A DNA stretch of 64,000 nt. Origin: Dehalococcoidia bacterium. GTDB taxonomy: Bacteria > Chloroflexota > Dehalococcoidia > Bin125. The stretch lies in NCBI GenBank assembly GCA_965208665.1, contig CBDBPH010000001.1, forward strand, positions 131,045-195,044, given 5' to 3'. Position 1 is the first letter of the stretch; each line of letters starts with the position of its first letter. The notes under the pieces were generated by a model. It ran no database searches. It was not told the DNA's origin and was given only the letters and a program-made list of their open reading frames with translations. Shown piece by piece: positions 4,266 through 44,294 of this stretch. A program made the position numbers and the translations under genes.

Positions 4266-4326
4266 GGGCCCTCACGCTCGGCTGCGTGGGGGCCCTCACC
4301 CTAGCCCTCTCCCAGAGGGAGAGGGG
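4266..4326. repeat. REP-like dispersed palindromic element, copy A (duplicated GGCCCTCAC leader + CCCTCTCCC-AGA-GGGAGAGGG hairpin)
   Basis: ggccctcacgctcggctgcgtgggggccctcaccctagccctctcccagagggagagggga; intergenic between halogenase stop and HTH gene stop; same family recurs at 23548, 26086, 34581, 38749, 39000. Confidence 0.8.
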
Positions 4327-26528: not shown

Positions 26529-26705
26529 CGCAACAGTCCTCTCATCGCCTCGTTGTCGGGAGGTTGGAGCCAGTGTAGCAGGCGCCGCCGGCCGATCGGG
26601 TGTTCCGGGTTGACGGCCATGGGATTTGCGATCAGTGCGGGACGGCCCGGATTCAGTAATGGACTGTCCACAGATTGTCACAACGCGGGGTTGTCGTGCT
26701 GCTAC

Positions 26706-26719
26706 AGAACTATAGTTCG
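26706..26719 (+). promoter_or_regulatory. putative LexA (Cheo-type SOS) box AGAACTATAGTTCG overlapping the -35 region of the imuB-dnaE2 promoter
   Basis: Perfect GAAC-N4-GTTC palindrome 3 nt upstream of a TATAAT hexamer (26722-26727), ~35 nt upstream of the imuB ATG. Confidence 0.55.
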
Positions 26720-26721
26720 GT

Positions 26722-26727
26722 ATAATG
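26722..26727 (+). promoter_or_regulatory. putative -10 hexamer TATAAT for imuB-dnaE2
   Basis: Consensus -10 in an otherwise GC-rich region, directly downstream of the SOS box. Confidence 0.4.
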
Positions 26728-26753
26728 TTTTTCGACTCTGAGTGGAGCCAGAC

Positions 26754-28187
26754 ATGTCACCAGTTTCCTCCGTGCAAGTGACGCACTTCCGGGCACGGGC
26801 GGAGTTAGCCCGGCGGCCCGAGTTGGCGGATTGCGCCGGCCTGATCGTCGATCGTTCGAGGCGCAAGGCCGTGGTGGTCGATTGCCTGCCCGCGGTTTCC
26901 GGATCATTGCTGGGGATGTCGTTGGAGCGTGCGCGCTCGTTTGTGCCGGACGCGGTGGTGATCGATGCGGATGAGCCGCATTACCGGCACGAGTTCGAGC
27001 GGATGCTGTGCGCACTTGAGCAGGTCAGCGAGCAGGTCGAAGGAGCGGAGCTGGGCGTCGCCTACGTGGGAGTGGACGGCACGTCGGCGATGAGCGAGGA
27101 ACTGCTCGGTGCGATGCCTGAGCGCTACCAGCCGCGCATCGGGATCGGCGAGAACAAGTTTGGCGCGTTCGTCGCCGCGTACACGCGTCGTTCGTCGGGC
27201 GTGAGTCGCGTTCCGCCTGACGCGGCAGCGTTTCTCGCGCCACATTCGATTGATTTGCTGCCCTGCTCAACCGCTCTGACCGACGAGCTACGGCTGCTTG
27301 ATCTGCGCACGCTGGGCGAGGTCGCGGCGCAAGATGTCAACGCGTTGCTGGATCGCTTCGGGCACGAGGGGCGGCGTGCCTGGGAACTCTCGCGCGGGAT
27401 CGACGACCGTCCGCTTGTTGCTCGCACGCACGAGGAATCGATCACGGAGACGCTCGCGCTGCCGGCCGAGGCGACCACACTGGAACTGCTGCGGGCGGCG
27501 GTGGACCGGCTGTTGCAACGGGCATTCGCGCAGCCGAGAATGCAAGGCCGCTACGCCAGCACAGTCAGGCTGAGCTGCTCGCTCGACGACGCGCCGGACT
27601 GGGAGCAGACGTTTCATTTCAAGAGCGGCGTGGGCGGTTGGCAGCGAGCGGCAGAGATCATCAAGGGACGGTTGGAAACGGAGCATCCGCCGGCTCCGGT
27701 CGAAGCGATGACGGTCATGCTGGCGAACCTCGGCGGGGCGACAGGCGAGCAGGGTTCGCTCTTCCCCGATCTGCGCCACGACCGCGAGCGGCGCCTGTTG
27801 GAGACCGAGCGACAGCTCCGGGTGCGGCTGAACGGCCAGCGCTCGCTCAGCCGCCTGGTCGAGGTCGCGCCCTGGCATCCGGTCCCGGAACTGCGCACGG
27901 CGCAGGTCTCGATCGATCCGTCGAGCGACGACGGCATGCGGCCGTTGAGCAGACCGGAGATCGTCGCGGTGCGCGCGGGGCCGACGCAAGAACCGCTCGC
28001 GGTTCAGATCGGCGAGCGCTGGCGAGAGGTGACGCGGATCGAAGAGCAGTGGAGTTTCGATCTCTGGTGGAGAGCCAGGCCAACGACCCGGACGTACTAC
28101 CGGGTGAGCCAGGCGAACGACCAGCAGCTCGTCTTGTTCCGCGATCAACACGAAGGCTGCTGGTATCGGCAGGGCGGGGTCGGATGA
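26754..28187 (+). CDS. imuB: ImuB-like Y-family DNA polymerase homologue (SOS mutagenesis cassette protein)
   Basis: 478 aa Y-family-like N-terminal region (LIVDRS..VVDCLPAV..GMSLERARSFVPDAVV) without obvious catalytic DxD/E triad; stop overlaps the dnaE2 start (ATGA). Confidence 0.65.
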   Translation: MSPVSSVQVTHFRARAELARRPELADCAGLIVDRSRRKAVVVDCLPAVSGSLLGMSLERARSFVPDAVVIDADEPHYRHEFERMLCALEQVSEQVEGAELGVAYVGVDGTSAMSEELLGAMPERYQPRIGIGENKFGAFVAAYTRRSSGVSRVPPDAAAFLAPHSIDLLPCSTALTDELRLLDLRTLGEVAAQDVNALLDRFGHEGRRAWELSRGIDDRPLVARTHEESITETLALPAEATTLELLRAAVDRLLQRAFAQPRMQGRYASTVRLSCSLDDAPDWEQTFHFKSGVGGWQRAAEIIKGRLETEHPPAPVEAMTVMLANLGGATGEQGSLFPDLRHDRERRLLETERQLRVRLNGQRSLSRLVEVAPWHPVPELRTAQVSIDPSSDDGMRPLSRPEIVAVRAGPTQEPLAVQIGERWREVTRIEEQWSFDLWWRARPTTRTYYRVSQANDQQLVLFRDQHEGCWYRQGGVG

Positions 28188-31100
28188 GCTACATCGAACT
28201 GCATGCCAAGAGCTTCTGCTCCTTCGGGCTGGGCTCGTCTCACGTCCACGAGCTGCTGGCGCAAGCCGCCGAGTTCGGGATGCCCGCACTGGCACTGACC
28301 GATACCAACCTCTGCGGCGCGCTGGAGTTCGCGCGGCTGGCAACCAGCCTCGAGATCCAGCCGATCACGGGCGGCGAGCTGACTCTGACGGACGGCTCTC
28401 GTCTCGTCTTGCTGACCAAAACACGCACGGGCTACGCCAACCTCTCGCGCCTGTTCACGCTGGCCAACGAGGTCGACCGGCGCGATCCGAAACTCGATCC
28501 GGCGCTCCTGGCCGAGCACGCCGAAGGTCTGGTGCTGCTCAGCGGCGGACGCAATGGACCACTCTCGCGGCTCGTCCTGGCGGGTGATCGAGCCACAGCG
28601 CGCGAGCTGCTGGGGAGCTATCGGGAGTGGTACGGAGCCGATTCGGTCTACGTCGAGTTGCAGCGCAACTTCCTGCGCGGCGACCGCGAGCACAACCGCG
28701 AGCTCGTTTCGCTAGCCCGCGAGGTAGACGCGCGGCTGGTCGCCACAAACGACGTGCATTACCACGCGCCCGAGCGTCACCGCCTGCAACAGGCGCTGGT
28801 CGCAGCGAAACACAACACGACGCTGGACCAGGCGCTGCGCCATCTCCACCCGAATTGCCACTTGCACCTCAAGTCCGAGGCGGAGATGGCGCAGCTGTTC
28901 GCCGATCTGCCCGAAGCGCTCGACAACAGTCAACGAATCGCCGCGCAGTGCAGCTTCCGGCTCGACGCCGACCTCGGCTATACGCTGCCGCAGCCATTGG
29001 TGCCGGAGGGCTACTCGACGGAGAGCTACCTCAGGCGGCTCTGCGACGAAGCCGCGGTCCGACGTTACGGCTCGCTCAACCGGCAGGTTGCGGCGCGGCT
29101 GGACGAAGAGTTCGGCCTGATCAACCGGCACAACCTGGCCGGCTTCCTGCTGCTCTACCGCGAGATCGTGCGTCTGGCGCGGCGGATCATGGAGGAGCGC
29201 GGCCTGGTCGAGCCGGAGACGCCGCTCGAGCAGCAGCCACCCGGACGCGGGCGCGGCTCGTCCGTGGCGTTCCTGGTCGGGTACCTGATCGGGATCAGCC
29301 ACATCGATCCGCTGCGCTGGGACCTCACGCTCGAACGCTTCCTGCCAGAGGACATGACCTCGCTGCCCGATATCGATCTCGACTTCCCGCGCGGTCTGCG
29401 CGAGGAGCTGATCGAGCGGGTGCACACACACTTTGGCCGCGACTACGCCGTCCTGGCGGGCGCGATCTCGACCTACTCCATCAAGGGCATAATCCAGGAC
29501 CTGGGCAAAGCGCTGGATTTGCCGCCGGACGAGCTGCGCTCGTTGTCGGAGCAGCTGCACTCGCGCGGCGGAGGCGGGCTGCGCGAGCAGATGGAACAGC
29601 TGCCCACATTCAGAGACAAGGTGGACGCGTACGGCTGGCGCACCCTCGTCGAACTGGCGCCGCAGTTGATCGGCGCGCCGCGCGGACTGAGCCAGCATGT
29701 CGGCGGGATGATCCTGAGCAGTTCGCCAATCCCAGAGATGGTTCCGGTACGAGCCGGCGCGATCGCCGGCCGTTACATCATGGACTGGGACAAGGACAGC
29801 GTGGCCGACGCCAACTTCGCCAAGATCGATCTGCTCTCGCTGCCCGTCCTGGATCAACTCGATGAAGCGTTGGATCTGGTCGAGCAGCGGGAAGGCGAGC
29901 GTCCCGACCTGAGCCGGATCAGTCCCGAGGACGACGGCGTCTACGACCTGATCAACGAGGGCCGGTCGAAGGGTGTGTTCCTGCTCCAATCGCCGGCCCA
30001 GCTCAAGATGGCGCAACGGCTCAGGTCACGCAATCTGCGCGATCTGGCGTACCAGATTGCCCTGATCCGGCCGGGCGTCGGCACCCAGGGCAGCGCGGTG
30101 AGCCAGTTCGTCGAGCGCTACCGCCATGGTGCGGAATGGGAATACGATCATCCGCTCGAGCAACGCGCGCTGGAGCGTGGCTACGGCGTGATCGTGTGGC
30201 AGGAACAGGTCGTGCAGCTGATCATGGACGTCGCCGGGATGACCAGCGCCGAGGCCGATCAGGTGCGGCGCGCGTTTGCGAAAACGAACAACGAGCATCT
30301 GATCAAGATGCACCGCGAACACTTTCTCAAGGGTGCGCGAGCGAACGGCGTCGCGAGCGATATCTCGCAGCGCATCTTCGCCAAGATCAACGGACACTAC
30401 ATGTTCCCCGAGTCGCACTCGCACGCCTTCGCGATCACCGCCTTCCAGGCCGCCTGGCTGAAGCGCTACCACCCGTTGGAGTTTTTCGTCTCGTTGATCA
30501 ACAACCAGCCGATGGGCTTCTACCCGGTCGAGACGCTGAAAGAGGACGCGCGCAAGTTCGGCATTTTTTTCCTCAACCCCTGCGTCAACCGCAGCCGGGT
30601 GCGCTGCGCGCCCGAGGACGGCGCGGCCAGGCTGGGGTTGGGCATGATCAAGGACATCGGTCCCGAGTCGGCCAAGCTGATCGTGAAGGAGCGCGAGCTT
30701 CACGGCCCCTATTCGGATGCCGGCGAGCTCGTGCGCCGCACGGGCCTCAAGCCGCAGTCCGTCCGCTCGCTGGTCGAGGCAGGTGCGTTCGACGCGCTGA
30801 CGCCCAACCGCCGCGAGGCGCTCTGGGATGCGGGGCTCTCGATCCGGCCGGCGCGCCACGGGCAGCGCGCCTTCCCCGTCGCTACGGCAGACCCGCCACC
30901 AACGTTCAACGACTTCACGGACTTCGAGAAGATGGCCGGCGAGTACCGCGTTCTCGGGATCTATCCCCGCGGCCACGTGATGGAGTTCATCCGCCCCAGC
31001 CTCGACGCCAGCGTGCGTACGACCGCGGAGACGTATCAGGCTGATGACGGCGAGCGGATCCAGGTCGCGGGTTGGCCGATCGCACGGCAGCACCCACGAG

Positions 31101-31324
31101 GCGCAGACGGGATCGTGTTCGTCACGATCGAAGATGAGACCGGCGACGTGCAGGCCTTCATCTCGCCCAAGGTGTTCGCTCGCTCTCGGCGGGCGGTGGC
31201 GAATCAGATCATCCTGCTTACGGGCCGGATCGATCGTTGGGACGGCACAACCAACATCTTCGCCGAGCGGGTTGATGTCGTCGGCGCCGACGTCCGCCTA
31301 CCTTCCGCTCACGACTGGCATTGA
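28184..31324 (+). CDS. dnaE2: error-prone DNA polymerase III alpha-subunit paralogue DnaE2
   Basis: 1046 aa; N-terminal PHP domain MSYIELHAKSFCSFGLGSSHVHELLAQAAEFGMPALALTDTNLCGALEFARLA; polymerase core, OB-fold C-terminus; no tau-binding tail. Confidence 0.85.
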   Translation: MSYIELHAKSFCSFGLGSSHVHELLAQAAEFGMPALALTDTNLCGALEFARLATSLEIQPITGGELTLTDGSRLVLLTKTRTGYANLSRLFTLANEVDRRDPKLDPALLAEHAEGLVLLSGGRNGPLSRLVLAGDRATARELLGSYREWYGADSVYVELQRNFLRGDREHNRELVSLAREVDARLVATNDVHYHAPERHRLQQALVAAKHNTTLDQALRHLHPNCHLHLKSEAEMAQLFADLPEALDNSQRIAAQCSFRLDADLGYTLPQPLVPEGYSTESYLRRLCDEAAVRRYGSLNRQVAARLDEEFGLINRHNLAGFLLLYREIVRLARRIMEERGLVEPETPLEQQPPGRGRGSSVAFLVGYLIGISHIDPLRWDLTLERFLPEDMTSLPDIDLDFPRGLREELIERVHTHFGRDYAVLAGAISTYSIKGIIQDLGKALDLPPDELRSLSEQLHSRGGGGLREQMEQLPTFRDKVDAYGWRTLVELAPQLIGAPRGLSQHVGGMILSSSPIPEMVPVRAGAIAGRYIMDWDKDSVADANFAKIDLLSLPVLDQLDEALDLVEQREGERPDLSRISPEDDGVYDLINEGRSKGVFLLQSPAQLKMAQRLRSRNLRDLAYQIALIRPGVGTQGSAVSQFVERYRHGAEWEYDHPLEQRALERGYGVIVWQEQVVQLIMDVAGMTSAEADQVRRAFAKTNNEHLIKMHREHFLKGARANGVASDISQRIFAKINGHYMFPESHSHAFAITAFQAAWLKRYHPLEFFVSLINNQPMGFYPVETLKEDARKFGIFFLNPCVNRSRVRCAPEDGAARLGLGMIKDIGPESAKLIVKERELHGPYSDAGELVRRTGLKPQSVRSLVEAGAFDALTPNRREALWDAGLSIRPARHGQRAFPVATADPPPTFNDFTDFEKMAGEYRVLGIYPRGHVMEFIRPSLDASVRTTAETYQADDGERIQVAGWPIARQHPRGADGIVFVTIEDETGDVQAFISPKVFARSRRAVANQIILLTGRIDRWDGTTNIFAERVDVVGADVRLPSAHDWH

Positions 31325-31399
31325 TTCCGATCGAGGATCGCATCGTGCCGAACGGGACGCCTCAGGACAGTGAATTCGACGAATCGTTACCCTGATCCC

Positions 31400-32574: not shown

Positions 32575-33699
32575 TCACGCAGTTGGGTCGAGTTGCGCAG
32601 ACCAGTCGATATCGGTTTCGAGGAATCGCCCGACTTCAGCGAACTCGGCTTCCAGTTGCGTTTGTGCGCTCTCTGACAATTCTTCGAAGCATGTGACCCT
32701 GACGGTCAGTCCGCGGGCACGGCGTTTGCGGTCCCAGGTTGCGACCAATCGGCCCTCGATCAAGACGCAGGGACGGAGCATCCCGCCGCCGGCGTTGACT
32801 CGCTTGAGGAGATGGTCGGGGACGTCGAGGTCTCGTTTGGCGTAGCCGACGATGTACGGATCGAATGGTCCCAACACTCGCAAGACGTCCTGTGGAGCGT
32901 CCAGCACATCGTTGAGCCGATCCAAGCCGTCCTGCGACATCCACATCGTCTGGCCATCGACGTCTACCTCGGTCAGAGCTTCCATCGCGGCTTGTAGACA
33001 TTGACGGGTGTCGGCAGCGGGCAGGCCGGACCACCAGCGGAAATCGGACTGGGTTGCCGGGCCGTAGGCGGCGAAGTAGCGGCGGGCGAGTTCGGCGCCG
33101 GGGTCCGGAGGTGGATCGGCCTGGGGCAGCCAGTCGTCGATCAGGACGTGGGTCGTGTCGCCGTTGCGTTCGGGACCGAAGCAGGTGACGCCCAGCAACG
33201 ACGTGGTACGGAGCAGGTGGGGTGTGGCCTGGCCGTCCGACGGAAGGCCCGCCGAACGGAAGGCGTCGCCAATCTCGGCTCGGGTCATTGGTCCCCTGGC
33301 TGCGAGTTCCTTGCGCAGGAACTTGAGCACCTTGGCATGGTCGTCGTCGGAGATGCCTAGGTCGGCTCGGCGTTTGAGCGCCTTGGCGTCGATGGCTTCG
33401 CCGAGCAGGTCGAGCATCCAGCGGAGATCCTCGGATGGGACGAGATGGAGGGTGCCGCGCATGAGCCAGTTGCGGACGATCGAGCGGTCGACGAGGCGGG
33501 CGTGATCGACGTTGGCGGCGGTCAGGCCCGTCGAGCGGGTGCCGACGCCGAGTTGCTCGCCGAGGCGGTCCTGGGCCTGGATGGCGGCGGCGGATCGGAC
33601 GGTGTCGGGCACGGCTGTGCCGCGCCGGGCGCTCAACAGCTGGGCGTGGAGGCGAAGGCGATGGGCCTCGCGGCGGGTGAGGGCGATTTCGGCGGGCAT
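32575..33699 (-). CDS. AlkZ/YcaQ-like winged-helix DNA glycosylase (DUF1006; interstrand-crosslink repair family)
   Basis: 374 aa; N-terminal AAIQAQD (Q-hydrophobic-Q catalytic motif as in AlkZ), HLVPSEDLRW, C-terminal winged-helix region. Confidence 0.6.
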   Translation of the reverse strand: MPAEIALTRREAHRLRLHAQLLSARRGTAVPDTVRSAAAIQAQDRLGEQLGVGTRSTGLTAANVDHARLVDRSIVRNWLMRGTLHLVPSEDLRWMLDLLGEAIDAKALKRRADLGISDDDHAKVLKFLRKELAARGPMTRAEIGDAFRSAGLPSDGQATPHLLRTTSLLGVTCFGPERNGDTTHVLIDDWLPQADPPPDPGAELARRYFAAYGPATQSDFRWWSGLPAADTRQCLQAAMEALTEVDVDGQTMWMSQDGLDRLNDVLDAPQDVLRVLGPFDPYIVGYAKRDLDVPDHLLKRVNAGGGMLRPCVLIEGRLVATWDRKRRARGLTVRVTCFEELSESAQTQLEAEFAEVGRFLETDIDWSAQLDPTA

Positions 33700-33713
33700 G
33701 AGTATCAGCCTAG

Positions 33714-34550
33714 GTGGGCGGAATTGGTAGGCTCACGCTCGTGACCAGTCCACCCAGTCCACCCAGTCCACGCGGCGATGGATGGCAGCCGGACCAGTAC
33801 GCCCGGTTCAAGGCGGAGCGGGAGCAGCCGTTCTACGACCTGCTGGACCTGGTAGAGCCGGTGCTCGCGGGGCGCGTGGTCGATCTGGGTTGCGGTACCG
33901 GCGCGCTGACTGTGGCGTTGCACACGAAGACGTTGGCGGACGAGACGGTCGGGCTGGACCGGTCGGAGGCGATGCTGGAGCAGAGCGCTGAGCACGCGGG
34001 TGGCGGTGTGCGGTTTGTGCGCGGCGACATTGCCGAGTTCAGCGGGTTGGATGGCGGCGGGCTGGATGTGGTGTTCGCCAACGCGTCGATCCAGTGGGTG
34101 CCGGACCATGCGTCGCTGTTTCCTCGGCTGGCCGCGACGCTGAGGCCGGGCGGGCAACTGGCGGTGCAGATGCCGGCCAACGAGGATCATCCGTCGCACG
34201 CGGTGGCTCGCGCGGTGGCGCAGGAGTCGCCGCACGCGGAGGCGCTGGGCGGGTTCGTGTATCGGCACTCGATCGAGTCGGCGGAGTGGTACGCGGAGCA
34301 GCTGGCGCGGCTCGGATTCGTCGAGCAGCACGTGCGCGTGCAGGTCTATCTGCACCGGTTGCCGGGGCCGGAGGACGTGATCGAGTGGGTCAAGGGGTCG
34401 CTGCTGACGGGCTATCGGAATCGGATGTCGGCGGAGGACTACGAGGCGTTCCTGGCGGACTATCGGGAGCGCCTGCTGTCGGTGTTGCCCGACGAGCGTC
34501 CGTTCCTCTACCCGTTCAAGCGGCTCCTGCTGTGGGGGCGGATGGGCTAG
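33714..34550 (+). CDS. tam: trans-aconitate 2-methyltransferase-like SAM methyltransferase
   Basis: WQPDQYARFKAEREQPFYDLL (Tam N-terminal signature), VVDLGCGTGALT motif I. True start may be the GTG at 33741 because the AlkZ-like gene starts at 33699 on the other strand. Confidence 0.65.
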   Translation: MGGIGRLTLVTSPPSPPSPRGDGWQPDQYARFKAEREQPFYDLLDLVEPVLAGRVVDLGCGTGALTVALHTKTLADETVGLDRSEAMLEQSAEHAGGGVRFVRGDIAEFSGLDGGGLDVVFANASIQWVPDHASLFPRLAATLRPGGQLAVQMPANEDHPSHAVARAVAQESPHAEALGGFVYRHSIESAEWYAEQLARLGFVEQHVRVQVYLHRLPGPEDVIEWVKGSLLTGYRNRMSAEDYEAFLADYRERLLSVLPDERPFLYPFKRLLLWGRMG

Positions 34551-34564
34551 GCGGTGGTCAGGGT

Positions 34565-34639
34565 GGTTGGGTTTGGTCGAGGCCCTCACCCTAGCCCTCT
34601 CCCTCGGGGAGAGGGGACTGGAGATGGTTGGGTTTGGTC
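34565..34639. repeat. REP-like palindromic element, copy D, flanked by a 14-bp direct repeat GGTTGGGTTTGGTC
   Basis: ggttgggtttggtc-gaggccctcaccctagccctctccctcggggagaggggactggagat-ggttgggtttggtc; immediately after the tam stop; left border of a lower-GC accessory segment. Confidence 0.8.
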
Positions 34640-34777
34640 AGGTTCGGTAGGCGTGTTATGTCGAGTGGGATTGCGAATTCCCTGTGTTTTGCTGGGTTTC
34701 GTGATCGGTGGTAGGTCGTCAGGTGAGAATTTTTCCTGGGCGCTGGGAAACGAAAAAACGGGTTCGGGTGCTCAGAC

Positions 34778-34807
34778 TTGTCCAGATCTGTCCAGATTCG
34801 TCCAGAT
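34778..34807. repeat. 10-nt x3 tandem repeat (TTGTCCAGAT/CTGTCCAGAT/TCGTCCAGAT) in a ~400-bp lower-GC non-coding stretch
   Basis: Read directly from the sequence; lies 3' of the MTase gene. Confidence 0.7.
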
Positions 34808-35014
34808 GCGGCTCGATTTTGCCAGTTTTGTTCCAGGTGAGTCCGCGCGAGTTCAGGAGCGTCCGGGTTGGCGGCTGGATGCTGACTGGCTGGATATTGG
34901 CGGGGCACGTGGGTTGCCTCCCGGCTGCGTGAGCGCATATGTTCTGATTGTATTCGATTTCGGCATCCTGTGGGGACGCGGGGCGAACCGGGCTTGTGGT
35001 CGGATTGACAGGGA

Positions 35015-36658
35015 CTACGCGTCGAGGGATTGCTGGACGCCTTGCTGGCGCCGCCGGCGTGGGGCTTTGCGGAAGGTCTGGGGGGCGGCGAAGCGGGGGT
35101 AGTCGGGCTGGTCGCCGTTGAGGAGCTGCTCGATGGTGAGGATCTGGACCTTGGGGTACCTCCGGGTCTCGAGTCCCGATGATTCGTAGAAGCCGGCGGC
35201 GATCGCTTCCTGGCGCATCGGCTTGGTCGGTTCTTCAAGGGTGATGAAGATGCCGATGGCGGCGTCCTCGCGCTCCATGTCGCCCTTGAGCGTGGCGACC
35301 ATGCCGCGGTTGACGTGACCGCTCTTGACCTGGACGATGATGCGCCTGGCCTTGCCGGAGTTGTCGTCGAAGAAGTTGATGTAGCCGTCAATGCCGGAGT
35401 CGGCGCCCTTCTTGCCGGTGGCGGGCCGGGCGTCGACGAGGCCGAGCGCCCAGTACTCGAACTGGTAGCGGCCGTCATGCTCGGACTCGGTGGCGAGCGC
35501 GCGGGCACTGGCGACATCCTCTGGGAGCCCGACGATCTGGTAGGCGGACAGTTCGGTGCCGAACGTGTCGTGCAGGCGGTGCTTCATCAATGAGATTGAC
35601 ACGTGAGTGAGATCAATGCCGATCCAGCGCCGCTTGAGCCGCTCGGCCACGGCGACGGCGGTGCCGCAGCCGCAGAAGGGATCGAGGACGATGTCGCCCT
35701 CGTTGCTGCTGGCATCGATGATGCGTTCGAGCAGAGCTTCAGGCTTCTGTGTCGGGTAGCCGAGGCGTTCCTTATGGGCACCAGAAAGCGACGGAATGTC
35801 GCTCCAGATGTCTTGAACTGGCACACCCTTCGAATCTTCCAAGTACAGCTTCTGTCGCGGGTATCCGGTCCTGGAATAGTAGAGCCGGCCTTCGTCATGA
35901 AGCCGCTGCATGGTTTCCTTGCTGTATCTCCATGCGCGAGTGTGACCATTCCAGTCGAAGACGGGATTGCCCTTCTCCGCGCCACCCGGACCAGTCAGAG
36001 GTGTGGTAGTAAAGCGCTTACCGGTCTCCTCATCGATGTGCCTGTAGGTCGATTTGACGTAGCTTTCATCCAGCGGGACAAAACCTTGGTTCCATATGAC
36101 CGAGTCACCCTTGTTATAGAGCAACAGAATGTCGTGGACTCGTCCAAAGTGCCTGGAGCCTTGCCCGACATCGTTATGAGCGCCGTAACGCCGCCAAGTG
36201 ACTTCGTTGGTGAACATGTCGTGTCCGAAGACCGCATCCATCACCAGCTTCAGATAGTGGCTCGCGGTCGGGTCGCAGTGGAGGTAGATGCTTCCGGTTG
36301 GTTTGAGGACGCGGTGGAGTTCGGCGAGGCGCTGGGCCATCATCGTGAGGTAGGCCATCATGTCGTTCTGGCCGAGGAACTCGCGCATCGCCTGGAGCAG
36401 CTTGCCCAGCTTGTCGGGGCCCTCGGTGACAACCTCCTGGTAGGCGCGCTCGGAGTCGAGGGTCCAGTGCCAGGTGTCGTCGAAGGCGGTGATCTGTGCC
36501 GCGGAGTCCTCGCCGGATCGCTCCTTGAAGAGGACGTTGTAGGTGGCGTTGGAGTTGAAGGGCGGGTCGAGGTAGATGAGGTCGACGGACTCGGAAGGGA
36601 TGTGTTCGCGGAGGACGGAGAGGTTGTCGCCGAAGTAGAGCTGGTTGGTCCAGGTCAT
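35015..36658 (-). CDS. DNA methyltransferase (N6-adenine/N4-cytosine, DPPF-type) fused to a C-terminal Mrr-like PD-(D/E)xK nuclease domain
   Basis: SVDLIYLDPPFNSN (motif IV DPPF), C-terminal SAM-binding motif VLDPFCGCGT. Then GADSGIDGYINFF...RRIIVQVKSG (Mrr_cat-type D...QxK). GGAGG RBS upstream of ATG at 36658. Confidence 0.75.
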   Translation of the reverse strand: MTWTNQLYFGDNLSVLREHIPSESVDLIYLDPPFNSNATYNVLFKERSGEDSAAQITAFDDTWHWTLDSERAYQEVVTEGPDKLGKLLQAMREFLGQNDMMAYLTMMAQRLAELHRVLKPTGSIYLHCDPTASHYLKLVMDAVFGHDMFTNEVTWRRYGAHNDVGQGSRHFGRVHDILLLYNKGDSVIWNQGFVPLDESYVKSTYRHIDEETGKRFTTTPLTGPGGAEKGNPVFDWNGHTRAWRYSKETMQRLHDEGRLYYSRTGYPRQKLYLEDSKGVPVQDIWSDIPSLSGAHKERLGYPTQKPEALLERIIDASSNEGDIVLDPFCGCGTAVAVAERLKRRWIGIDLTHVSISLMKHRLHDTFGTELSAYQIVGLPEDVASARALATESEHDGRYQFEYWALGLVDARPATGKKGADSGIDGYINFFDDNSGKARRIIVQVKSGHVNRGMVATLKGDMEREDAAIGIFITLEEPTKPMRQEAIAAGFYESSGLETRRYPKVQILTIEQLLNGDQPDYPRFAAPQTFRKAPRRRRQQGVQQSLDA

Positions 36659-36807
36659 TTGGGGCCTCCGGTGGTCAGGGTAAGGGCAGTCGGGCGTTAG
36701 CAGAGCCGGTCCCGGTTCAAGCGGTGAGTAGCACGTTCCGGGAGCCAAGCATCGACCATCCGTTCGTAGATAGTAGACTAGCGACAGAGACGAGGAGGCT
36801 GACAACG

Positions 36808-37665
36808 ATGCCTGGTGAACTCATTGCGGGTGCTGCCGCAGGCTTGACGAACCCGGCAACTGCGTTGATCGAAAGGGTGTCCGATGCAGTCGGCGGCATC
36901 GCGAGGCCTGCTCAGATTCGTCGTGTCGCTAGGGCTGAGGCCGATGCGAAGGTGATCATGGCCGAAGCGGACATCAAGATCACCGAGATCCAGCAGCGCG
37001 CAGCGCGCCGCTTCATTGAGGAGGAAACGAAGAACCAGATCAACATAGAGAACATTACCCATCAGGCGATACCTCACCTCAATGAAAATGCAGAGCCCGA
37101 GAAGATCGAAGACGACTTTCTCAGGAACTTCTTCGATAAGTCGCGGCTGGTGTCGGACGAACAGATGCAGGAGATCTGGGCCCGCATACTCGCCGGCGAG
37201 GCGAACAACCCGGGAACCTTCGCAAGGAAGACGATCAACATCGTGGCCGATATGGACAAGTCCGACGCCGACCGATTCGCTATCCTCCTCAGTTTTTCCT
37301 GGGTCGTCGGCGGCAACCCGGTGGCCATTGTCTACAACGACGACAGCTATTTCGATGAGAGGGGGATCGATCTAGAGATGTTGGCTGATCAGGAGTCGCT
37401 TGGTCTGATCTCGACGAATTCTCTTCCGTACGGGTTCTACCTCAGCGGGGTATCACTCCGTGCTGCTTACTTCGATAAGTCTGCTCAAATCACTCTGTCA
37501 AACAAAGACAAGAACTTTCTGAGCACGGGCAATGTGTTTCTTACTCCGGCTGGCCGACAGCTCGCATCAATGTGTCGCGTGAGACCGATCGAGGGTTTCT
37601 TTGACTTCATGTGCAGAAGGTGGGAAGAGGACTCGAGCGTAGAGTCGGTCAGGACACTCAACTGA
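36808..37665 (+). CDS. DUF2806-like protein (N-terminal coiled coil), noticeably lower GC than surroundings
   Basis: SDEQMQEIWARILAGEANNPGTFARKTINIVADMDKSDADRF resembles the conserved DUF2806 core; GAGGAGG RBS before ATG at 36808. Confidence 0.45.
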   Translation: MPGELIAGAAAGLTNPATALIERVSDAVGGIARPAQIRRVARAEADAKVIMAEADIKITEIQQRAARRFIEEETKNQINIENITHQAIPHLNENAEPEKIEDDFLRNFFDKSRLVSDEQMQEIWARILAGEANNPGTFARKTINIVADMDKSDADRFAILLSFSWVVGGNPVAIVYNDDSYFDERGIDLEMLADQESLGLISTNSLPYGFYLSGVSLRAAYFDKSAQITLSNKDKNFLSTGNVFLTPAGRQLASMCRVRPIEGFFDFMCRRWEEDSSVESVRTLN

Positions 37666-37685
37666 GTGGCTGAGTGAGGGGAGGG

Positions 37686-37727
37686 GGCCCGTCCCCGAGC
37701 GAGTCGGGGAACGGACGGGGGCTCTGC
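37686..37727 (+). terminator. putative terminator hairpin after DUF2806-like gene
   Basis: Imperfect GC-rich inverted repeat GGGGGCCCGTCCCCGA-GCGAGT-CGGGGAACGGACGGGGGC 20 nt after the stop. Confidence 0.3.
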
Positions 37728-37836
37728 TTGAGGCTTCGATGAGGGGGACGATGTCGTCGAAGTTGGTGGTGGCTCGAACGGTGTCGAGGTCGTAGAAGCG
37801 CTGTAGGGTAGTCGGCTGATGCTTTTGGAGCGCTGA

Positions 37837-38076
37837 GTGAAGACGACCGATCACTTCTGGAAGGCGCGCTTTCTGATGCCCGACCGCGGGCGCATCCAAC
37901 TGCATTGGATTCAGCGAGTAGTGGATCGGCCGCTCCGACGTGAAGTGCAGTCGGATGGCCGAATCCGATGCTGGGGGCGTGTACCGGAACTGGGTGGACG
38001 GGCGCTCAGAGTGGTAATCTTGGCCGACGGCGAGACGGTCCACACTGCGTTCGTCGACGGAAGATTCAGGCCATGA
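37837..38076 (+). CDS. DUF4258-family toxin (type II TA)
   Basis: MKTTDHFWKARFLMPDRGRI... matches the T-DH-x-x-AR-x-x-x-RGI opening of DUF4258; 79 aa; stop overlaps the start of the downstream DUF2283 gene. Confidence 0.55.
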   Translation: MKTTDHFWKARFLMPDRGRIQLHWIQRVVDRPLRREVQSDGRIRCWGRVPELGGRALRVVILADGETVHTAFVDGRFRP

Positions 38077-38270
38077 AGCGGTTCTACTCCAAAGACACCG
38101 ACACGCTCATGTTCGTCTTTTCCGACGAGCGCGTTACTGATTATGTTGATCTGGACTTCCAAACGCTGCTCGAACTGGACTGCGACGGCAATCCCGTTGC
38201 CCTGACCATCGAGCACGCCCGCGAACGCAAGGTGCTGCCAGAGGTCGATTCTGAACGGATTCCCGCCTGA
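38073..38270 (+). CDS. DUF2283-family antitoxin
   Basis: MKRFYSKDTDTLMFVFSDERVTDYVDLDFQTLLELDCDGNPVALTIEHARE is the classic DUF2283 pattern; ATGA overlap with the toxin. Confidence 0.6.
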   Translation: MKRFYSKDTDTLMFVFSDERVTDYVDLDFQTLLELDCDGNPVALTIEHARERKVLPEVDSERIPA

Positions 38271-38720
38271 TTGCGGAGACGATCGATGTTGCGAGCGGTG
38301 GCGGAGCCGGCGGCGATTGAGCGCCTGGCGAGCCAGATCAAGGAGTCGCCGATGGATGAGGTGCGAATGCCGGCGCAAGTCGCCAATCCCGATGCGCCCG
38401 ACCGCTACTGGGAGGCGGATTTCCTGCTCGACAGCGGCGCGAGCGTTTCGGTCGTGCCGGTCGACGTCCTCGAGCGGCTCGGCGTTAGTCCGCGTCGCCT
38501 GGGCCGCTCCTATCTCGCCGATGAGTCGTCGATCGTGCGGCGCGTGGGACTGGCGACGTTTACCGTCGCGGGCGAGACGGAAGACGCGAGCGTCATGTTT
38601 GGCGAGGAGGGCACGGAACCGATCCTCGGCCTGACGGTGCTGCAATCGATGGGGTTTCTCGTTGATCCGCTGCGTGAGCGTCTGCTGCCTCGTTCGGCGC
38701 TCGCGGAGGCGTTGGATTAG
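38271..38720 (+). CDS. retropepsin-like (clan AA) aspartic protease
   Basis: FLLDSGASVSVV carries the D-S-G-A catalytic motif; ~145 aa single-domain bacterial retropepsin-like protein. Confidence 0.55.
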   Translation: MRRRSMLRAVAEPAAIERLASQIKESPMDEVRMPAQVANPDAPDRYWEADFLLDSGASVSVVPVDVLERLGVSPRRLGRSYLADESSIVRRVGLATFTVAGETEDASVMFGEEGTEPILGLTVLQSMGFLVDPLRERLLPRSALAEALD

Positions 38721-38744
38721 GGATCTTCCCGGGACTGGGGTGCT

Positions 38745-39110
38745 GTGGAGGCCCTCACCCCAGCCCTCTCCCTCGGGGAGAGGGGGTCAGAAGGGGCGGG
38801 ATTCCGTAGCGGGGTCGGGAATGAGGGTGAGAGGTGGGTACTGTGGGCGGGTGCCCCCCTCTGTCTCTACGAGACATCTCCCCCCGCTGGCGCGGGGGGA
38901 GAGAAGAAGGGGCGGGTCTCCGGGTTCGAGCGCGGTGGGAGAGGGGAAGGGGCTGGTCCCCGCTCGGGGGTGGGGAACGGGAGGATTCTGCCGTGGGAGG
39001 GGCCCTCACCCCCCGCCTTCGCGGGGGCAGGCTCTAACCCTCTCCCTCGGGGAGAGGGGATTCGCGAGCGGGTCGGGGAGCTGGGAGGGCTCGTGTATCC
39101 TGAGGCGGAT
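38745..39110. repeat. complex array: two full REP-like units (38749-38788, 39000-39062) plus degenerate ~40-45-nt tandem GGGG-rich sub-repeats and additional CCCCGC-N-GCGGGG hairpins
   Basis: Repeated gaaggggc(g/t)gg...cgggg...gggga blocks; the shadow ORF 38745..39116 translates to repetitive GERG/GEGAG peptides. Confidence 0.75.
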
Positions 39111-39127
39111 GGGTGAATGGAGTTGGG

Positions 39128-39835
39128 ATGGTTTCTCCGACGTTTGACACTGGGGGGGCTCCGATCCCCCTGTTGGACCCGGTGACGGATGTTGAGGACG
39201 AGCTTCGGTCTCAACTTCTGATCTCGACGGTGGACAAGGTGTTTGGCTGGGCTCGGCGGTCGTCTCTGTGGCCGGCGATGTTTGGGTTGGCCTGCTGCGC
39301 GATCGAGATGATCGCGACGGCGAACGCTCGCTACGACCTGGCCCGGTTTGGGGCCGAGGTGTTCCGGGCGTCGCCTCGACAGGCGGACCTGATGATCGTG
39401 GCCGGCACGGTGACCTGGAAGATGGCGCCTCCGGTTCGGCGGATCTACCTGCAGATGGCCGAGCCGAAGTGGGTGATCTCGATGGGCTCGTGCTCGAACA
39501 TCGGCGGACCGTTCGCGCACGGCTACTCGACGCTGCCGGGTGTGAACAACATCGTTCCGGTCGACGTCTACGTGCCTGGTTGCCCGCCGCGGCCGGAGTC
39601 GTTGCTGGCCGGTCTGATGCTGCTGCAGCAGGTGATCGACGAGGAGCACGCGAACGGGCATCGCAAGCGTCGACCGGAGCCGACGGGCGACTTCTCGCGG
39701 ATGCTGCCCGAGGGCGACCCGATCCGGCAGGAGCTGGAATCGCTGTTCCCGCCGTACCTGACGGCGGACGGTCAGCCTCGTGACAAGTGGACGGGCGCGC
39801 TGCCGCACGACCAGAACTTCTTCACGAGCCGCTAG
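39128..39835 (+). CDS. nuoB: NADH-quinone oxidoreductase subunit B (NuoB/Nqo6) with ~60-aa C-terminal extension
   Basis: [16 protein letters not shown]...[22 protein letters not shown]...WVISMGSCS...[14 protein letters not shown]: all four [4Fe-4S] N2 cysteine motifs. Confidence 0.8.
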
Positions 39836-39885
39836 ACGATAGAGCGGGCAAGGCCGCTAGTCGGTTGAGCGGGCAAAGCCGCTAG
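39836..39885. repeat. 25-nt x2 tandem repeat, each unit an AGCGG-N6-CCGCT palindrome ending in TAG
   Basis: acgatagagcgggcaaggccgctag / tcggttgagcgggcaaagccgctag; the nuoB stop context (gagccgctag) is a third partial copy exactly 25 nt upstream. Confidence 0.7.
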
Positions 39886-39897
39886 AGAGACGGGCAC

Positions 39898-40383
39898 ATG
39901 GTCTTCGGCAAGGGCATCGCCAAGGGACTGATGACCGTGGTCAAGCACGTGCGCAAGGCACCGGTGACGGTGCAGTTCCCGGAGGAAGAGCGCAACATCC
40001 CGCCGCGGGCGCGGACGAACCTGGTCTGGTTCGTGGAGCGCTGCACGGGCTGCTCGACGTGCGCGCAGGCCTGTCCCGACGGTTGCATCCTGGTCGACAC
40101 GGAGCCTCGGGAAGACGGCTCGTTCCTGGTCAACCGGTACGAGATCGATTTCCGGCTGTGCATGTACTGCGGCCTATGCGCCGAGGCGTGTCCGTATGAG
40201 GCGATCCAGGTGGGCGGGTCATACACGAACGTCGTGACGAATCCGAATCGTCTGTACAAGGACAAGGGCGACCTGATCGAGCTGGCCAACGAGTATCTGG
40301 AGCAGCACGACTGGGTCTATCCGAACGGTCAGCAGGCGGTGCAGCAGACAGTGCATCCTGAGGAGCGTCGGCAGCACCACTAG
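39898..40383 (+). CDS. nuoI: NADH-quinone oxidoreductase subunit I (NuoI/Nqo9), 2x[4Fe-4S] ferredoxin
   Basis: Two CxxCxxCxxxCP motifs (CTGCSTCAQACP, CMYCGLCAEACP); N-terminus KAPVTVQFPEE like Nqo9. Confidence 0.8.
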   Translation: MVFGKGIAKGLMTVVKHVRKAPVTVQFPEEERNIPPRARTNLVWFVERCTGCSTCAQACPDGCILVDTEPREDGSFLVNRYEIDFRLCMYCGLCAEACPYEAIQVGGSYTNVVTNPNRLYKDKGDLIELANEYLEQHDWVYPNGQQAVQQTVHPEERRQHH

Positions 40384-40395
40384 GGCGTCGGCAGC

Positions 40396-42621
40396 CTAGG
40401 AATCGCAGACATTCGGCGGGATCATAATCTCCAAGTCCGAGATGTTCTGATGCTTCATCTTTAGCGGGATCGCATCTCCTGGGTCGGTAGAAAAGCCATT
40501 CTCTCCAAAGTAGACGTAGCAGAACGGTGTAGAAACCATCAGGATGTGTTCTCCTGGACGGTCGACGGATAGCGCAAAGGAACCGTCGGCTTGAACCTTT
40601 GGATTTGAAGTGAACCACGAGTAGTAGATTCCAACGAACGATTCGCTAGCAGGTTCGCCGCGCTCATCGAGCACTCTTCCGCTAATCTGACCGGCGCAGG
40701 CGCCGACGGGAAGCCGCAGTTCCAACTCTCGGCCGGCCAGGTACTGGGCCTCGAAGAGTGTGTCGGCTGAGACCTCGCTCGCGAGTCCTGTGCCGTCGAA
40801 CGCATAGATGCAATCCTCGAACCTGACTCGCAAGCGGTACTTGTCCGCCTCGGGAAGTCTCAGACTGAACGTCCCATCGGAGCGAGTCCATTGGTATGTC
40901 GTACCTTCATCTCTTCTGGCCGATACAGACAGCGCGCTGACCGGAGCGCCCTGCGCATTCACTACTCTCCCAGTGATCCGGTGGTGGCAGAGATCCACGG
41001 GCAGTTGGACCGATATGCTCAAATCTTCATTGCCGACCGCGATTGTCTCAGCCGATCGCTGCTTCAGCATGAGTCCGGACTGGGCGTAGTAGACATTGCA
41101 ACCCTCAACCGTGACCAGTAACAGGTAGCCACCCGGCTCAACAAACGCGCTGACCGTGCCGTCCTGCCAGGTACGGGTCCGAATCGCAGTTTGCTCACTC
41201 GAGCGTGGATTCAGGGTCAATCTCACGTCGGCCAGGGATTCTCCATCCGAGCCAAGCATCGTCATGCTGACCAAGCTTTTTCGAGTCGCGCCCTGGCTCC
41301 TCGCCTCTGCGCGATGGCATGTGGCACTGAGGTCGGCCACGCCCAGGGTTTCGGCCACCAGGTGAGCTAATGACGGCACGAACTGCGACAGCTCGATTCG
41401 GTTGCTGATGCCGGAGTAGCTCTGGCCACGTAGGCCGAACCAGTAGAGGACGCCCTCGGCCCAGTACTCGGCTGAGTTGGTCATCGCGTATGTTCCCTCC
41501 AGCCACCCGGCCTCTCGAGCCTGCCGGTAAGACTGAACGAGGGCGCTGCGGAAGCTGCCTGAGCTGGATCCTCGGCTAATGGCGAAATCGATTGCGTGGG
41601 CGAACTCGTGAACGGCGACGTCATAGCCGTTGTAGCGATCGCCCTCGTAACAGAGGAGGTTTTCCTCGGGGACCAGCGTCGGGGTGTAGCCGTTCGGACC
41701 AAGACCTCGAGGTCCTCCTGGACCATGTCCCTCTAGTTCAATTCGATCTCGATACTGCCGATAAGGAGCCAGATCAAAGGTCTGTTCGGACTCGCCGACG
41801 ACGACGATGTGTTCGCGTCTCCTGATCAGCGTCTCGCGGACATCGGGACGGTTGACGAGTAGTTCGTCGACGATAGCGGCGGCGCGGAAGAGCGCCTCGT
41901 CGGCGACGTTTTCCGTGGCCATGATCGCCAGTCCGTCGGCGTCTAGGTACTTATCGAATGTGGCGTACCAGCGCAGATGGTCTGGCGGCGGTCCGAGCGG
42001 ATAGAGCGCGCGATCGCCGCTCGGTTGCAACCAGCTCGCTTCGGTCGTGTTGAAGACCCAGAGGCCGTCGCCGCGGCGCAGCTGGTGTTGGGGTCCGGGG
42101 GCTGGACGGGAGCCAGCCTGATAGAGCGCGAGTTCGCCACTATCGGGAGTGGAGTAGAGGGCCTGCGTGAATGACGCGCCGATGGACCGGACTGCCAGGT
42201 CGATCGGCGTGCCGCTCGGGCCAGTCCAGGCGACGAGGTTTGGCCCCGGCTTGAGCGCGACCCACTCGCCGTCGGCGACCGTCGGTTGATGCCACTCGAC
42301 CGGCTGCTCGCCGGCGATGCGGACGATCAGGCCCATTCCGGGCTCGATCGCGCTGAGGGTCGCAGAAAATCCGGGGGTGGAGAAGCGGTAACGGGCGTCG
42401 TCGGCGTCCCAGGTGTAGATAAGTTCCGCGTTCGGGATCTGGTCGAACAGCGCTTGCGGCGTGGTTGCGAAGCCGACCCAGCCGATCAGATTGTCCCCGG
42501 GGTGAAGCGTTCTGCTTGCCGGCGGAGACTCTTCACCAGCGACGAGTATCTGGGTCAGCAGCAGGGTGGCGAGCAGCGCGGAGAGGATAGTCGCGAGGCG
42601 TACGAGCCGACGCTGGCGCAT
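40396..42621 (-). CDS. secreted zinc metalloprotease with MtfA(M90)/ATLF-like gluzincin domain and three carboxypeptidase-regulatory-like beta-sandwich repeats
   Basis: Signal peptide MRQRRLVRLATILSALLATLLL; HEFAHAIDF (HExxH) with downstream NSAEYWAEG (third zinc ligand Glu as in MtfA/anthrax-LF-like fold). C-terminal repeats ITGRVVNAQGAPV / ISGRVLDERGEPA. ATG at 42621. Confidence 0.6.
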   Translation of the reverse strand: MRQRRLVRLATILSALLATLLLTQILVAGEESPPASRTLHPGDNLIGWVGFATTPQALFDQIPNAELIYTWDADDARYRFSTPGFSATLSAIEPGMGLIVRIAGEQPVEWHQPTVADGEWVALKPGPNLVAWTGPSGTPIDLAVRSIGASFTQALYSTPDSGELALYQAGSRPAPGPQHQLRRGDGLWVFNTTEASWLQPSGDRALYPLGPPPDHLRWYATFDKYLDADGLAIMATENVADEALFRAAAIVDELLVNRPDVRETLIRRREHIVVVGESEQTFDLAPYRQYRDRIELEGHGPGGPRGLGPNGYTPTLVPEENLLCYEGDRYNGYDVAVHEFAHAIDFAISRGSSSGSFRSALVQSYRQAREAGWLEGTYAMTNSAEYWAEGVLYWFGLRGQSYSGISNRIELSQFVPSLAHLVAETLGVADLSATCHRAEARSQGATRKSLVSMTMLGSDGESLADVRLTLNPRSSEQTAIRTRTWQDGTVSAFVEPGGYLLLVTVEGCNVYYAQSGLMLKQRSAETIAVGNEDLSISVQLPVDLCHHRITGRVVNAQGAPVSALSVSARRDEGTTYQWTRSDGTFSLRLPEADKYRLRVRFEDCIYAFDGTGLASEVSADTLFEAQYLAGRELELRLPVGACAGQISGRVLDERGEPASESFVGIYYSWFTSNPKVQADGSFALSVDRPGEHILMVSTPFCYVYFGENGFSTDPGDAIPLKMKHQNISDLEIMIPPNVCDS

Positions 42622-43601: not shown

Positions 43602-44294
43602 TTAGTCCGCCTCCGTGCGCTCTTCGTCGACGATCGCCCAGACCTCGGTCATGTCGACCGTTAGGCCTTCGAGCGTGGATTCGCCCGAGAGCGTGGCCGG
43701 GCGCTCGAGCCGTTCAGGGTCTTGATTCGGGCGGTAGATCCAGACTGTCTGGTCGAGCGGGTCGACGAGCCAGCCGAGCTCGACGCCGAATGTCAGCCAG
43801 TGCTCCATCCGCTGTCGTTGTGCGGACTGAGAGTCGGACGGAGAGCGAACCTCGATGACGAATGTCGGACAGACACGCCAAAAGCCCCGCCGTGGTCGAT
43901 CCTCGGCTTGAAGCGACGCGATCAGCTCCGGGCTGATCCACGAGCAATCGGGCGCCCAGGTGCGCTCGCCGAGATCGGGGTGGCTGAGTTTGTAGGTACC
44001 GTCAGGATCGCGAGCGCGCCCGCCTCCGCCAGCGACTCGCCAGTTGGCAACTTGGCGGCCTAGTTCGATACTGACATCTGAGCTATCGCCCCCCGCGATC
44101 ATCCTCACCTCCAGTTCGGCGTTCGGCCCGAGTTCGATCTTCCAACCTGCGTTGACCTGATTGAGCCGTTCCAGTTCCTCATCGGTCGGGGCGGCCGGCA
44201 TCTGAATGCGCAGGCAAACATCACGCAGTTCGGGTGCGACGAGCAAGGAGTCTGCGGTGGTCTCTACCTTTGTGCGTGCTTCGGCGGTGGTCAT
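43602..44294 (-). CDS. Uma2-family (DUF820) PD-(D/E)xK endonuclease
   Basis: CPTFVIEVRSPSDS...WLVDPLDQTVWIYR matches the Uma2 core (E-V-x-SPS, D, K region). Confidence 0.7.
   Translation of the reverse strand: MTTAEARTKVETTADSLLVAPELRDVCLRIQMPAAPTDEELERLNQVNAGWKIELGPNAELEVRMIAGGDSSDVSIELGRQVANWRVAGGGGRARDPDGTYKLSHPDLGERTWAPDCSWISPELIASLQAEDRPRRGFWRVCPTFVIEVRSPSDSQSAQRQRMEHWLTFGVELGWLVDPLDQTVWIYRPNQDPERLERPATLSGESTLEGLTVDMTEVWAIVDEERTEAD

Follow-up and report, generated by a model that had tools for sequence, protein, structure and literature searches.

Introduction

Belisama is a single-gene cassette of the Vibrio cholerae N16961 superintegron, encoding a protein of the DUF2806 family (Pfam PF10987), which has been validated as an anti-phage system (bioRxiv 10.1101/2024.07.02.601686). 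It protects alone as a cloned cassette; at high multiplicity of infection there is strong, unrecoverable lysis with no phage amplification, and over-expression is toxic. Its homology to Abi-alpha is detectable, and blastp finds homologs in 70 genera of Pseudomonadota (bioRxiv 10.1101/2024.07.02.601686). The subject here is a DUF2806 gene at positions 36808–37665 of a 64-kb stretch of contig CBDBPH010000001.1 (“the window”). To judge by its sequence it probably encodes an abortive-infection protein that acts alone, as Belisama does, and is distantly related to Abi-alpha, a candidate identification that draws on the validation of Belisama, on Abi-alpha homology, and on the defense genes that lie beside its homologs. 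That DUF2806 is a defense family was already known; this is a Chloroflexota-like example of it, and plausibly a defense gene. Membership in the family, stand-alone genetics, horizontal spread, defense genes concentrated beside homologs, and an architecture with a conserved N-terminal and a variable C-terminal half are established for it below.

Abi-alpha itself is EF2833, a 272-aa protein of Enterococcus faecalis V583 prophage 6 that brings about premature lysis of infected cells and defines the Pfam family Abi_alpha (PF14337, formerly DUF4393); its resemblance to PF10987 has been noted, its homologs are mostly prophage-borne, and its authors only speculate on its mode of action, suggesting holin timing or proton-motive force (PMC6356687). 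DefenseFinder-based surveys now call Belisama as a system, for example at an 819-bp locus in Oceanimonas, and in one case on a Desulfovibrio prophage. No mechanism for the DUF2806 family was found in the literature searched. The description of DUF2806 in a first-pass annotation of the window, as a family without assigned function, is nevertheless outdated, given an anti-phage role validated for Belisama and a relationship to Abi-alpha.

The window gene shares with Belisama its single-gene organization, a length of ~270–290 aa, DUF2806 as sole content, and family homology to Abi-alpha; both are partnerless, horizontally spread, and often found among defense or toxin-antitoxin (TA) genes. They differ in host (Pseudomonadota for Belisama, a high-GC Chloroflexota-like genome here) and in setting: the window gene lies outside any integron cassette, with no attC-like element and with a higA remnant as its downstream element. 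The Belisama phenotype is that of the V. cholerae protein. With Abi-alpha it has in common a similar size, a single-gene organization, and no known catalytic domain.

Gene call and family assignment

The open reading frame (ORF) on the forward strand runs from a GTG at 36724 to 37665, but the ATG at 36808 is the true start, because it is preceded by GAGGAGG (Table 1), because an identical 285-aa protein is in the databases (P0001), and because homologs are also ~285 aa long. The gene is present in one copy in the window, and the peptide that the first-pass annotation cited from it is found in its translation.

The resemblance to DUF2806 that had been proposed holds up well against Pfam: the PF10987 profile matches at 108.9 bits (E 4.5e-31; gathering threshold 24.5 bits) over essentially its whole length, positions 1–218 of 221, corresponding to residues 63–266 of the protein. 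It is the only Pfam domain present. Residues 1–62 fall outside the model, yet are conserved across the family. Every feature of DUF2806/Belisama membership that could be tested here was found in the window gene: the profile match is above threshold and essentially full-length, a length of 285 aa and DUF2806-only content agree with the single gene of ~270–290 aa by which Belisama is recognized, and no partner gene is conserved. With identity to gammaproteobacterial DUF2806 proteins at 34–47% over at least 87% of its length, the protein would probably also be retrieved by the blastp search of the Belisama authors (query coverage ≥ 50% and E < 1e-5 to the V. cholerae N16961 protein).

The relationship to neighboring families is looser. 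With the Pfam Abi_alpha profile (gathering threshold 29 bits), no match to the window gene's product was obtained at a cut-off as loose as E ≤ 5. In an alignment of 55 sequences, which includes the window protein, the DUF2806 profile matches all 55, and Abi_alpha matches 30 at E ≤ 0.01 (best E 3.9e-07), over the core and C-terminal region; the scores listed for four of these relatives are all below 29 bits. The NCBIfam model TIGR03899 scores 76.5 bits versus a curated cut-off of 155.65, and only over model positions 15–127 of 250. Since it is below the thresholds of both, the protein appears to be related to the Abi_alpha and TIGR03899 families without being a member of either.

Other searches yielded little. 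No model in PADLOC-DB 2023 matches the protein, which says little, as that database is older than Belisama; the sole PHROGs match is marginal (30 residues, E 0.0014) and to a family of no known function; and a sequence search of the PDB returned chance-level matches only. Some homologs are longer, at 380–444 aa, but they were rejected as informative fusions, having no Pfam domain besides DUF2806. Two of 431 aa (P0015 and P0021, at 58 and 53% identity) share an extra C-terminal ~145 aa with no Pfam match, which could be a fused partner domain or read-through of a neighboring gene.

Distribution and base composition

In a scan of 1.84 billion representative proteins, DUF2806 was found in 6,515 clusters (at 50% identity) at E ≤ 1e-3, and in 820 at E ≤ 1e-30. 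Nearly all are 270–320 aa long, with ~285 aa typical, and they span more than 12 phyla, bacterial and archaeal. Species-representative genomes contain at least 303 loci, the best 80 of which are at 39–57% identity to the window protein and come from Chloroflexota, Acidobacteriota, Pseudomonadota, Planctomycetota, Cyanobacteriota, Nitrospirota, Desulfobacterota, candidate phyla, and archaea. For such scatter across phyla at this level of identity, frequent horizontal transfer is the best explanation.

Viral contigs seldom carry the gene. Abi-alpha is mainly a prophage gene of Firmicutes, and DUF2806 could by analogy derive from a prophage and serve in superinfection exclusion, on the model of Abi-alpha in Enterococcus prophage 6; the mostly prophage-borne Abi-alpha homologs, the Belisama call on a Desulfovibrio prophage, and one phage protein in BFVD with the same fold (E 2.3e-18) are consistent with this. 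However, a search of 2.9 million viral contigs turned up only 7 loci, as compared with at least 303 in species-representative genomes, and the islet holds no phage genes by ORF and Pfam survey of its 4.5 kb, so that the prophage location characteristic of Abi-alpha is not seen here; the one PHROGs match, as noted, is marginal. A prophage origin of this kind is accordingly rated as highly improbable.

Plasmids are a different matter: DUF2806 is found on 312 of them, mostly conjugative IncX4. This raises the possibility that it is selfish or neutral cargo of mobile elements, addiction-like, with no anti-phage role in the present host. The toxicity of Belisama, the TA genes that adjoin DUF2806 in several loci, and a base composition atypical throughout the family would all fit, but no cognate antitoxin-like partner is conserved in the 83 loci compared below, and on circulating IncX4 plasmids the gene is often interrupted by an mcr-1 cassette, which makes it dispensable for maintaining the plasmid. 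A full-length ORF and an N-terminal half conserved across phyla argue in addition for selection on the protein. Cargo status alone is considered unlikely.

The base composition needs separate comment, as the low guanine-plus-cytosine (GC) content of the gene had been read as a sign of recent horizontal origin. The low GC itself is real: 55.2%, against a window mean of 65.0% (standard deviation 2.3%, in 858-nt windows), with no stretch of the window lower; third-position GC is 70%, as compared with 79–87% in flanking housekeeping genes, and the A/T-rich run cited by the first-pass annotation maps to 37024–37065. The conclusion drawn from it is not borne out. Across 65 of the loci L001–L085, each at least 8 kb long and together covering many phyla, the DUF2806 gene is below its flanks in GC in 95%, by a mean of 9.2 points, and the gap grows with host GC, from −1.5 points at ~41% to −12.4 at ~65%. 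Low GC is a family-wide property, reflecting either a shared mobile gene pool or a compositional constraint, and is therefore not evidence of recent arrival in the window. It is synteny, as described below, that shows mobility, rather than composition.

Gene neighborhoods

All-against-all clustering of 1,229 ORFs from 83 DUF2806 loci gave no neighbor family that recurs beside the gene; the largest neighbor clusters are from 9 loci, at a median distance of ~6 kb. Because no neighbor recurs, DUF2806 is taken to stand alone, in keeping with Belisama. Next to it are in part housekeeping genes (CstA, cytochrome bd, GcpE, EPSP synthase) and in part genes whose products match Type IIG and Type III restriction-modification (R-M) enzymes, DrmMI/PglX-type methylases, AriA/OLD ATPase-TOPRIM proteins, AbiLi, Mrr, and PIN proteins. 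The TA genes nearby vary by locus (MazE, ParE, HigBA, PIN/AF2212), and none is conserved; the conserved adjacent antitoxin that would mark DUF2806 as a type II TA toxin was thus not found.

The suggestion that homologs would be found near defense genes is supported, on a crude count of hidden Markov model (HMM) families. Scanned with PADLOC models at E ≤ 1e-5, the two nearest genes on each side matched 232 families in a first batch of 150 proteins and 183 in a second of 121, as against 31 families for 150 proteins encoded 6.5 kb or more from DUF2806 within these loci. These are counts of HMM families rather than of proteins, and are uncalibrated, since a single R-M enzyme can match numerous models and the proteins close to DUF2806 are the longer ones. 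Defense-type genes are clearly concentrated next to DUF2806 homologs, although this is not a calibrated enrichment.

The first-pass annotation also proposed that the gene, from its position, could be an effector or abortive-infection component. An abortive-infection role is indeed the best-supported one, but not as part of a system made up with its neighbors, as the 83 loci and the decay of the methylase gene described next both indicate.

Turnover of the islet in close relatives

In the window, DUF2806 is divergent from a gene previously described as R-M-like and confirmed by Pfam as a DNA methyltransferase, in this case with a C-terminal Mrr-type nuclease domain (“methylase-Mrr” below). The same module, including the divergent pair, is found in a Chloroflexota metagenome-assembled genome (L086/L087), with the methylase-Mrr ortholog in the same position and identities to the window of 73.6% for methylase-Mrr, 59% for DUF2806, 69.6% for the 79-aa gene, and 66% for the DUF2283 gene. 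This is the only place where a full-length close ortholog of methylase-Mrr was found; L004/L005 and L088 have remnants only, and the methylases of L013 and L080 are distant (24–27% identity).

The L004 DUF2806 protein is 90% identical to that of the window. DNA homology extends over window positions 36473–37807, comprising the first 62 methylase codons, the intergenic region (~87% conserved), DUF2806, and the end of higA; at the protein level ~68 methylase codons are still recognizable. The body of the methylase has been replaced by a gene for an OLD-family ATPase-TOPRIM nuclease, abutting DUF2806.

L088 is a 3.5-Mb contig syntenic with the window: the IscS-like, S-adenosylmethionine (SAM)-methyltransferase, NuoB-like, and ferredoxin genes are 88–97% identical, and AlkZ 72%. 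Its sequence matches the islet flanks at window positions 32578–34552 and 39084–40884, but the interval between the SAM-methyltransferase and NuoB-like genes contains other genes instead (Uma2 and a 242-aa gene). Its DUF2806 gene (59% identical) occupies a different location, which in the window is taken by a DnaE-like gene; beside this DUF2806 gene are 3′ and 5′ methylase remnants and an intact higBA pair.

More distantly, the L089 gene (57%) lies directly 3′ of an MmeI-type IIG enzyme gene and is followed by a probable TA pair (AF2212-like and PIN genes) and a PLD-helicase, in an element bearing a serine recombinase and a relaxase. In L001–L003, DUF2806 is beside MazE and ParE genes.

These comparisons mark the islet as variable cargo, and DUF2806 does not depend on the neighboring methylase, since in L004 and L088 it has stayed intact despite decay of the methylase gene. 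A second variable site lies ~3 kb from the islet: window positions 26545–31384, including the DnaE-like ORF (27638–31324, forward strand), are absent from L088, which has its DUF2806/higBA islet there. The DnaE-like polymerase gene may itself be accessory (DnaE2-type?). Uma2-family genes in L088 (13543–14202 and 16149–16793) are scattered among housekeeping genes, and their presence differs from the window, where the ORF at 43602–44294 (reverse strand) is Uma2/DUF820-type endonuclease-like by eye only; the Uma2-family genes apparently make up a further kind of mobile filler here.

The divergent arrangement invites comparison with PrrC/RloC, likewise abortive-infection-type genes beside R-M-type genes. 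On a PrrC/EcoprrI-style model, DUF2806 would guard the adjacent methylase-Mrr, be held silent by that protein, and fire when a phage anti-restriction factor disables the enzyme. The pair kept together in L086, the methylase remnants beside DUF2806 in L004 and L088, the Type IIG enzyme gene next to the L089 homolog, and the Type IIG, Type III, and Type II methylase models that PADLOC finds among nearest neighbors could all be read in this way. On the other hand, R-M types adjoin DUF2806 in a minority of loci, most of the 83 being without an R-M neighbor; DUF2806 stays intact after loss or replacement of the methylase body in two lineages; and Belisama works alone. Unlike PrrC/RloC, the window protein has no ATPase or anticodon-nuclease domain, and its adjacency to R-M genes is not conserved across the family. 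A guard function is therefore quite unlikely. An arrangement special to this Chloroflexota lineage, in which a DUF2806 guard and the divergent methylase-Mrr would form a two-layer unit with death upon inhibition of the R-M-type enzyme, would also come as a considerable surprise; if it did prove true, the N-terminal helical half would constitute a novel type of effector for triggering lysis, and the variable C-terminal half would determine specificity.

Conserved and variable halves of the protein

The DUF2806 protein is 32 kDa and acidic (pI 4.8). Its AlphaFold2 model (pLDDT 82.8, pTM 0.74) has no solved relative. Residues 1–55 form two low-confidence helices, although in sequence they rank with the best-conserved parts of the family; the helices at residues 13–55 are amphipathic, with a top helical hydrophobic moment of 0.55 at residues 19–36. 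A long helix follows at residues 57–90, then a helical core at residues 102–161 bearing the motif ILAGEANxPG, and an alpha/beta part from residue 164 to the C-terminus at 285.

The core of the predicted structure includes a small winged-helix-like unit, which brings up the possibility that DUF2806 is a transcription regulator, like the controller proteins of R-M systems, acting on the divergent methylase or on the islet rather than as a defense effector. The conserved linkage to a methyltransferase or endonuclease expected of an R-M component or controller is not seen in the family, and this regulator alternative is regarded as very unlikely.

Aligned with 54 homologs, the protein divides into two parts of very different conservation (Table 1): median identity to the window protein is 57% over the 162 residues of the N-terminal half and 33% over the 123 residues of the C-terminal half. 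Individual pairs can be more extreme. P0005 is 85% identical in the N-terminal half and 37% in the C-terminal half, and both it and P0007 drop from 81–85% to 37% near residues 150–165; in blastn comparison with L088, the alignment fails across window positions 37280–37583. The invariant residues (P34, R39, A43, R64, R68, Q77, D103, L128, A129, N133, F157, G199, G241, G249, and W272) are mostly in the N-terminal half, and make up no recognizable catalytic motif. Even homologs that align only in the N-terminal half match the DUF2806 profile along its full length; the C-terminal half is thus a fast-diverging version of one domain, not a replaced domain. It is proposed that the conserved half is the effector or oligomerization part, and the variable half the specificity or sensor part.

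No convincing membrane segment is predicted. A hydrophobic 19-mer at residues 157–175 (Kyte-Doolittle 1.8) was considered and rejected, as it forms a buried helix and strand in a core with pLDDT above 90. In this respect the protein differs from AbiZ of Lactococcus lactis, a single protein that hastens lysis of infected cells: AbiZ has membrane-associated features and acts via the phage holin, and with no sequence relationship it is a functional analog only.

Possible mode of action

If the window gene is an abortive-infection gene, it might work as follows. A cytosolic protein would be made constitutively and remain inactive in uninfected cells. On infection, the variable C-terminal alpha/beta half would recognize some phage-derived cue and so set specificity, a role suggested by the pattern of conservation. 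The conserved N-terminal half would then trigger premature lysis or death before phage progeny mature, sparing the clonal population, possibly by oligomerization of its amphipathic helices. The least unlikely step to be affected would be membrane energization or the timing of lysis, as the Abi-alpha authors proposed. No partner gene would be needed by the DUF2806 protein; methylase-Mrr, the higA remnant, the 79-aa/DUF2283 pair, and the aspartic protease would be co-resident cargo of a fast-turnover defense/TA islet.

The phenotype to be expected of the window gene, by analogy with Abi-alpha, would be premature lysis. The evidence for toxicity, and for protection against phage with lysis that is early or unrecoverable, comes solely from the literature on its Belisama and Abi-alpha relatives.

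Other features of the islet

Coordinates of the features in and around the gene are collected in Table 1.

Table 1. Features of the DUF2806 gene and of the islet that contains it, in window coordinates.
Feature	Position	Strand	Basis or remarks
DUF2806 gene	36808–37665	+	ATG to TGA, 285 codons plus TGA
Conserved N-terminal half, residues 1–162	36808–37293	+	Alignment with 54 homologs
Variable C-terminal alpha/beta half, residues 163–285	37294–37662	+	Alignment with 54 homologs
Shine-Dalgarno-like GAGGAGG	36792–36798	+	9 nt 5′ of ATG 36808, from sequence
Variable islet, 4.5 kb, GC 61.3%	34553–39083		Between conserved SAM-methyltransferase gene and NuoB-like gene
Methylase-Mrr gene, 547 aa	35015–36658	−	N6/N4 beta-class DNA methyltransferase with C-terminal Mrr-type nuclease domain
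Divergent intergenic region, 149 nt	36659–36807		Methylase start to DUF2806 start; presumed promoters
HigA/HTH_3 antitoxin 3′ remnant, 88 nt, ~29 codons	37720–37807	−	Similarity to intact higA-like genes
79-aa gene	37837–38076	+	ORF; ATGA overlap with DUF2283 gene
DUF2283 gene, 65 aa	38073–38270	+	Pfam PF10049 at 1.2e-06
Clan AA (retropepsin-like) aspartic protease gene	38271–38720	+	Pfam Asp_protease_2 at 1.5e-08

The true start of methylase-Mrr is the ATG at 36658, with GGAGG ahead of it. Pfam matches are to N6_N4_Mtase (9.4e-45), Mrr_cat (3e-08), and NA-iREase1 (1.2e-09), and the PADLOC model MTase_II matches at 4e-72. The expected motifs are intact (DPPF31, FCGCG328, and GID422...QVK443). 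For the nuclease domain, the “inactive” NA-iREase1 family scores slightly above Mrr_cat in Pfam despite the intact GID...QVK; no separate endonuclease gene is found near the methylase-Mrr gene. A scan for sigma-70 promoters and terminators gave nothing above shuffled sequences; the divergent intergenic region showed no sigma-70 consensus, although its absence says little for such an organism.

Downstream of DUF2806, the conserved 88-nt element was considered as an attC-like or regulatory site, a reading that was dropped because the element is what a decayed higA-type gene has left of its 3′ end, 82–89% identical to the corresponding end of the intact higA-like gene beside DUF2806 in L004 and L088. 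The intact L004 protein matches HTH_3 at 4.7e-09. In both loci the intact gene is convergent to DUF2806, and in L088 higB is also present. In all related loci homology of the remnant ends exactly at 37807. L086 has two copies of it, one 5′ of the aspartic protease gene and one 5′ of the 79-aa gene.

The downstream genes had been annotated as a TA pair, which is half confirmed: the DUF2283 assignment is good, but Pfam returns nothing for its 79-aa partner even at E ≤ 5. The pair resembles a two-gene addiction-type module of which only DUF2283 is identifiable. The aspartic protease gene begins straight after the DUF2283 stop codon, and its product matches TIGR03698 at E 7e-11 (42.4 bits), below the cut-off of 57.35. 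Its L086 ortholog (74% identical) is 7 kb from the rest of the module with a higA remnant of its own ahead of it, so that the protease gene moves separately, as a unit of its own.

No tRNA gene was found at the islet, and an Rfam scan of 34000–39500 turned up nothing real. A REP-like palindrome, (GGCCCTCACCC..)CCCTCTCCCTCGGGGAGAGGG, is present in five intergenic copies in the window, at 4305, 23563, 34595, 38764, and 39038, where none would be expected by chance. Copies of CCCTCTCCCTCGGGGAGAGGG thus occur on both sides of the islet as well as elsewhere in the window. The 48-nt repeats at 34569 and 38738 were considered as insertion scars and rejected, as the palindromic unit is also found at 4305, 23563, and 39038; the unit is a dispersed REP-like element. 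Related copies are present in L088 and L089, and translation of the palindrome accounts for the “PSPLPRGEG” pseudo-peptides of spurious ORFs.

Significance

The window gene adds a Chloroflexota-like example to a defense family validated only in Vibrio. The local comparisons show how quickly islets of this kind turn over while DUF2806 persists in them. For work on Belisama and Abi-alpha, the size of the family, the split between its N- and C-terminal halves, and a fold without solved relative should be useful, and the conserved-N/variable-C split suggests a division between effector and sensor across the DUF2806 family.

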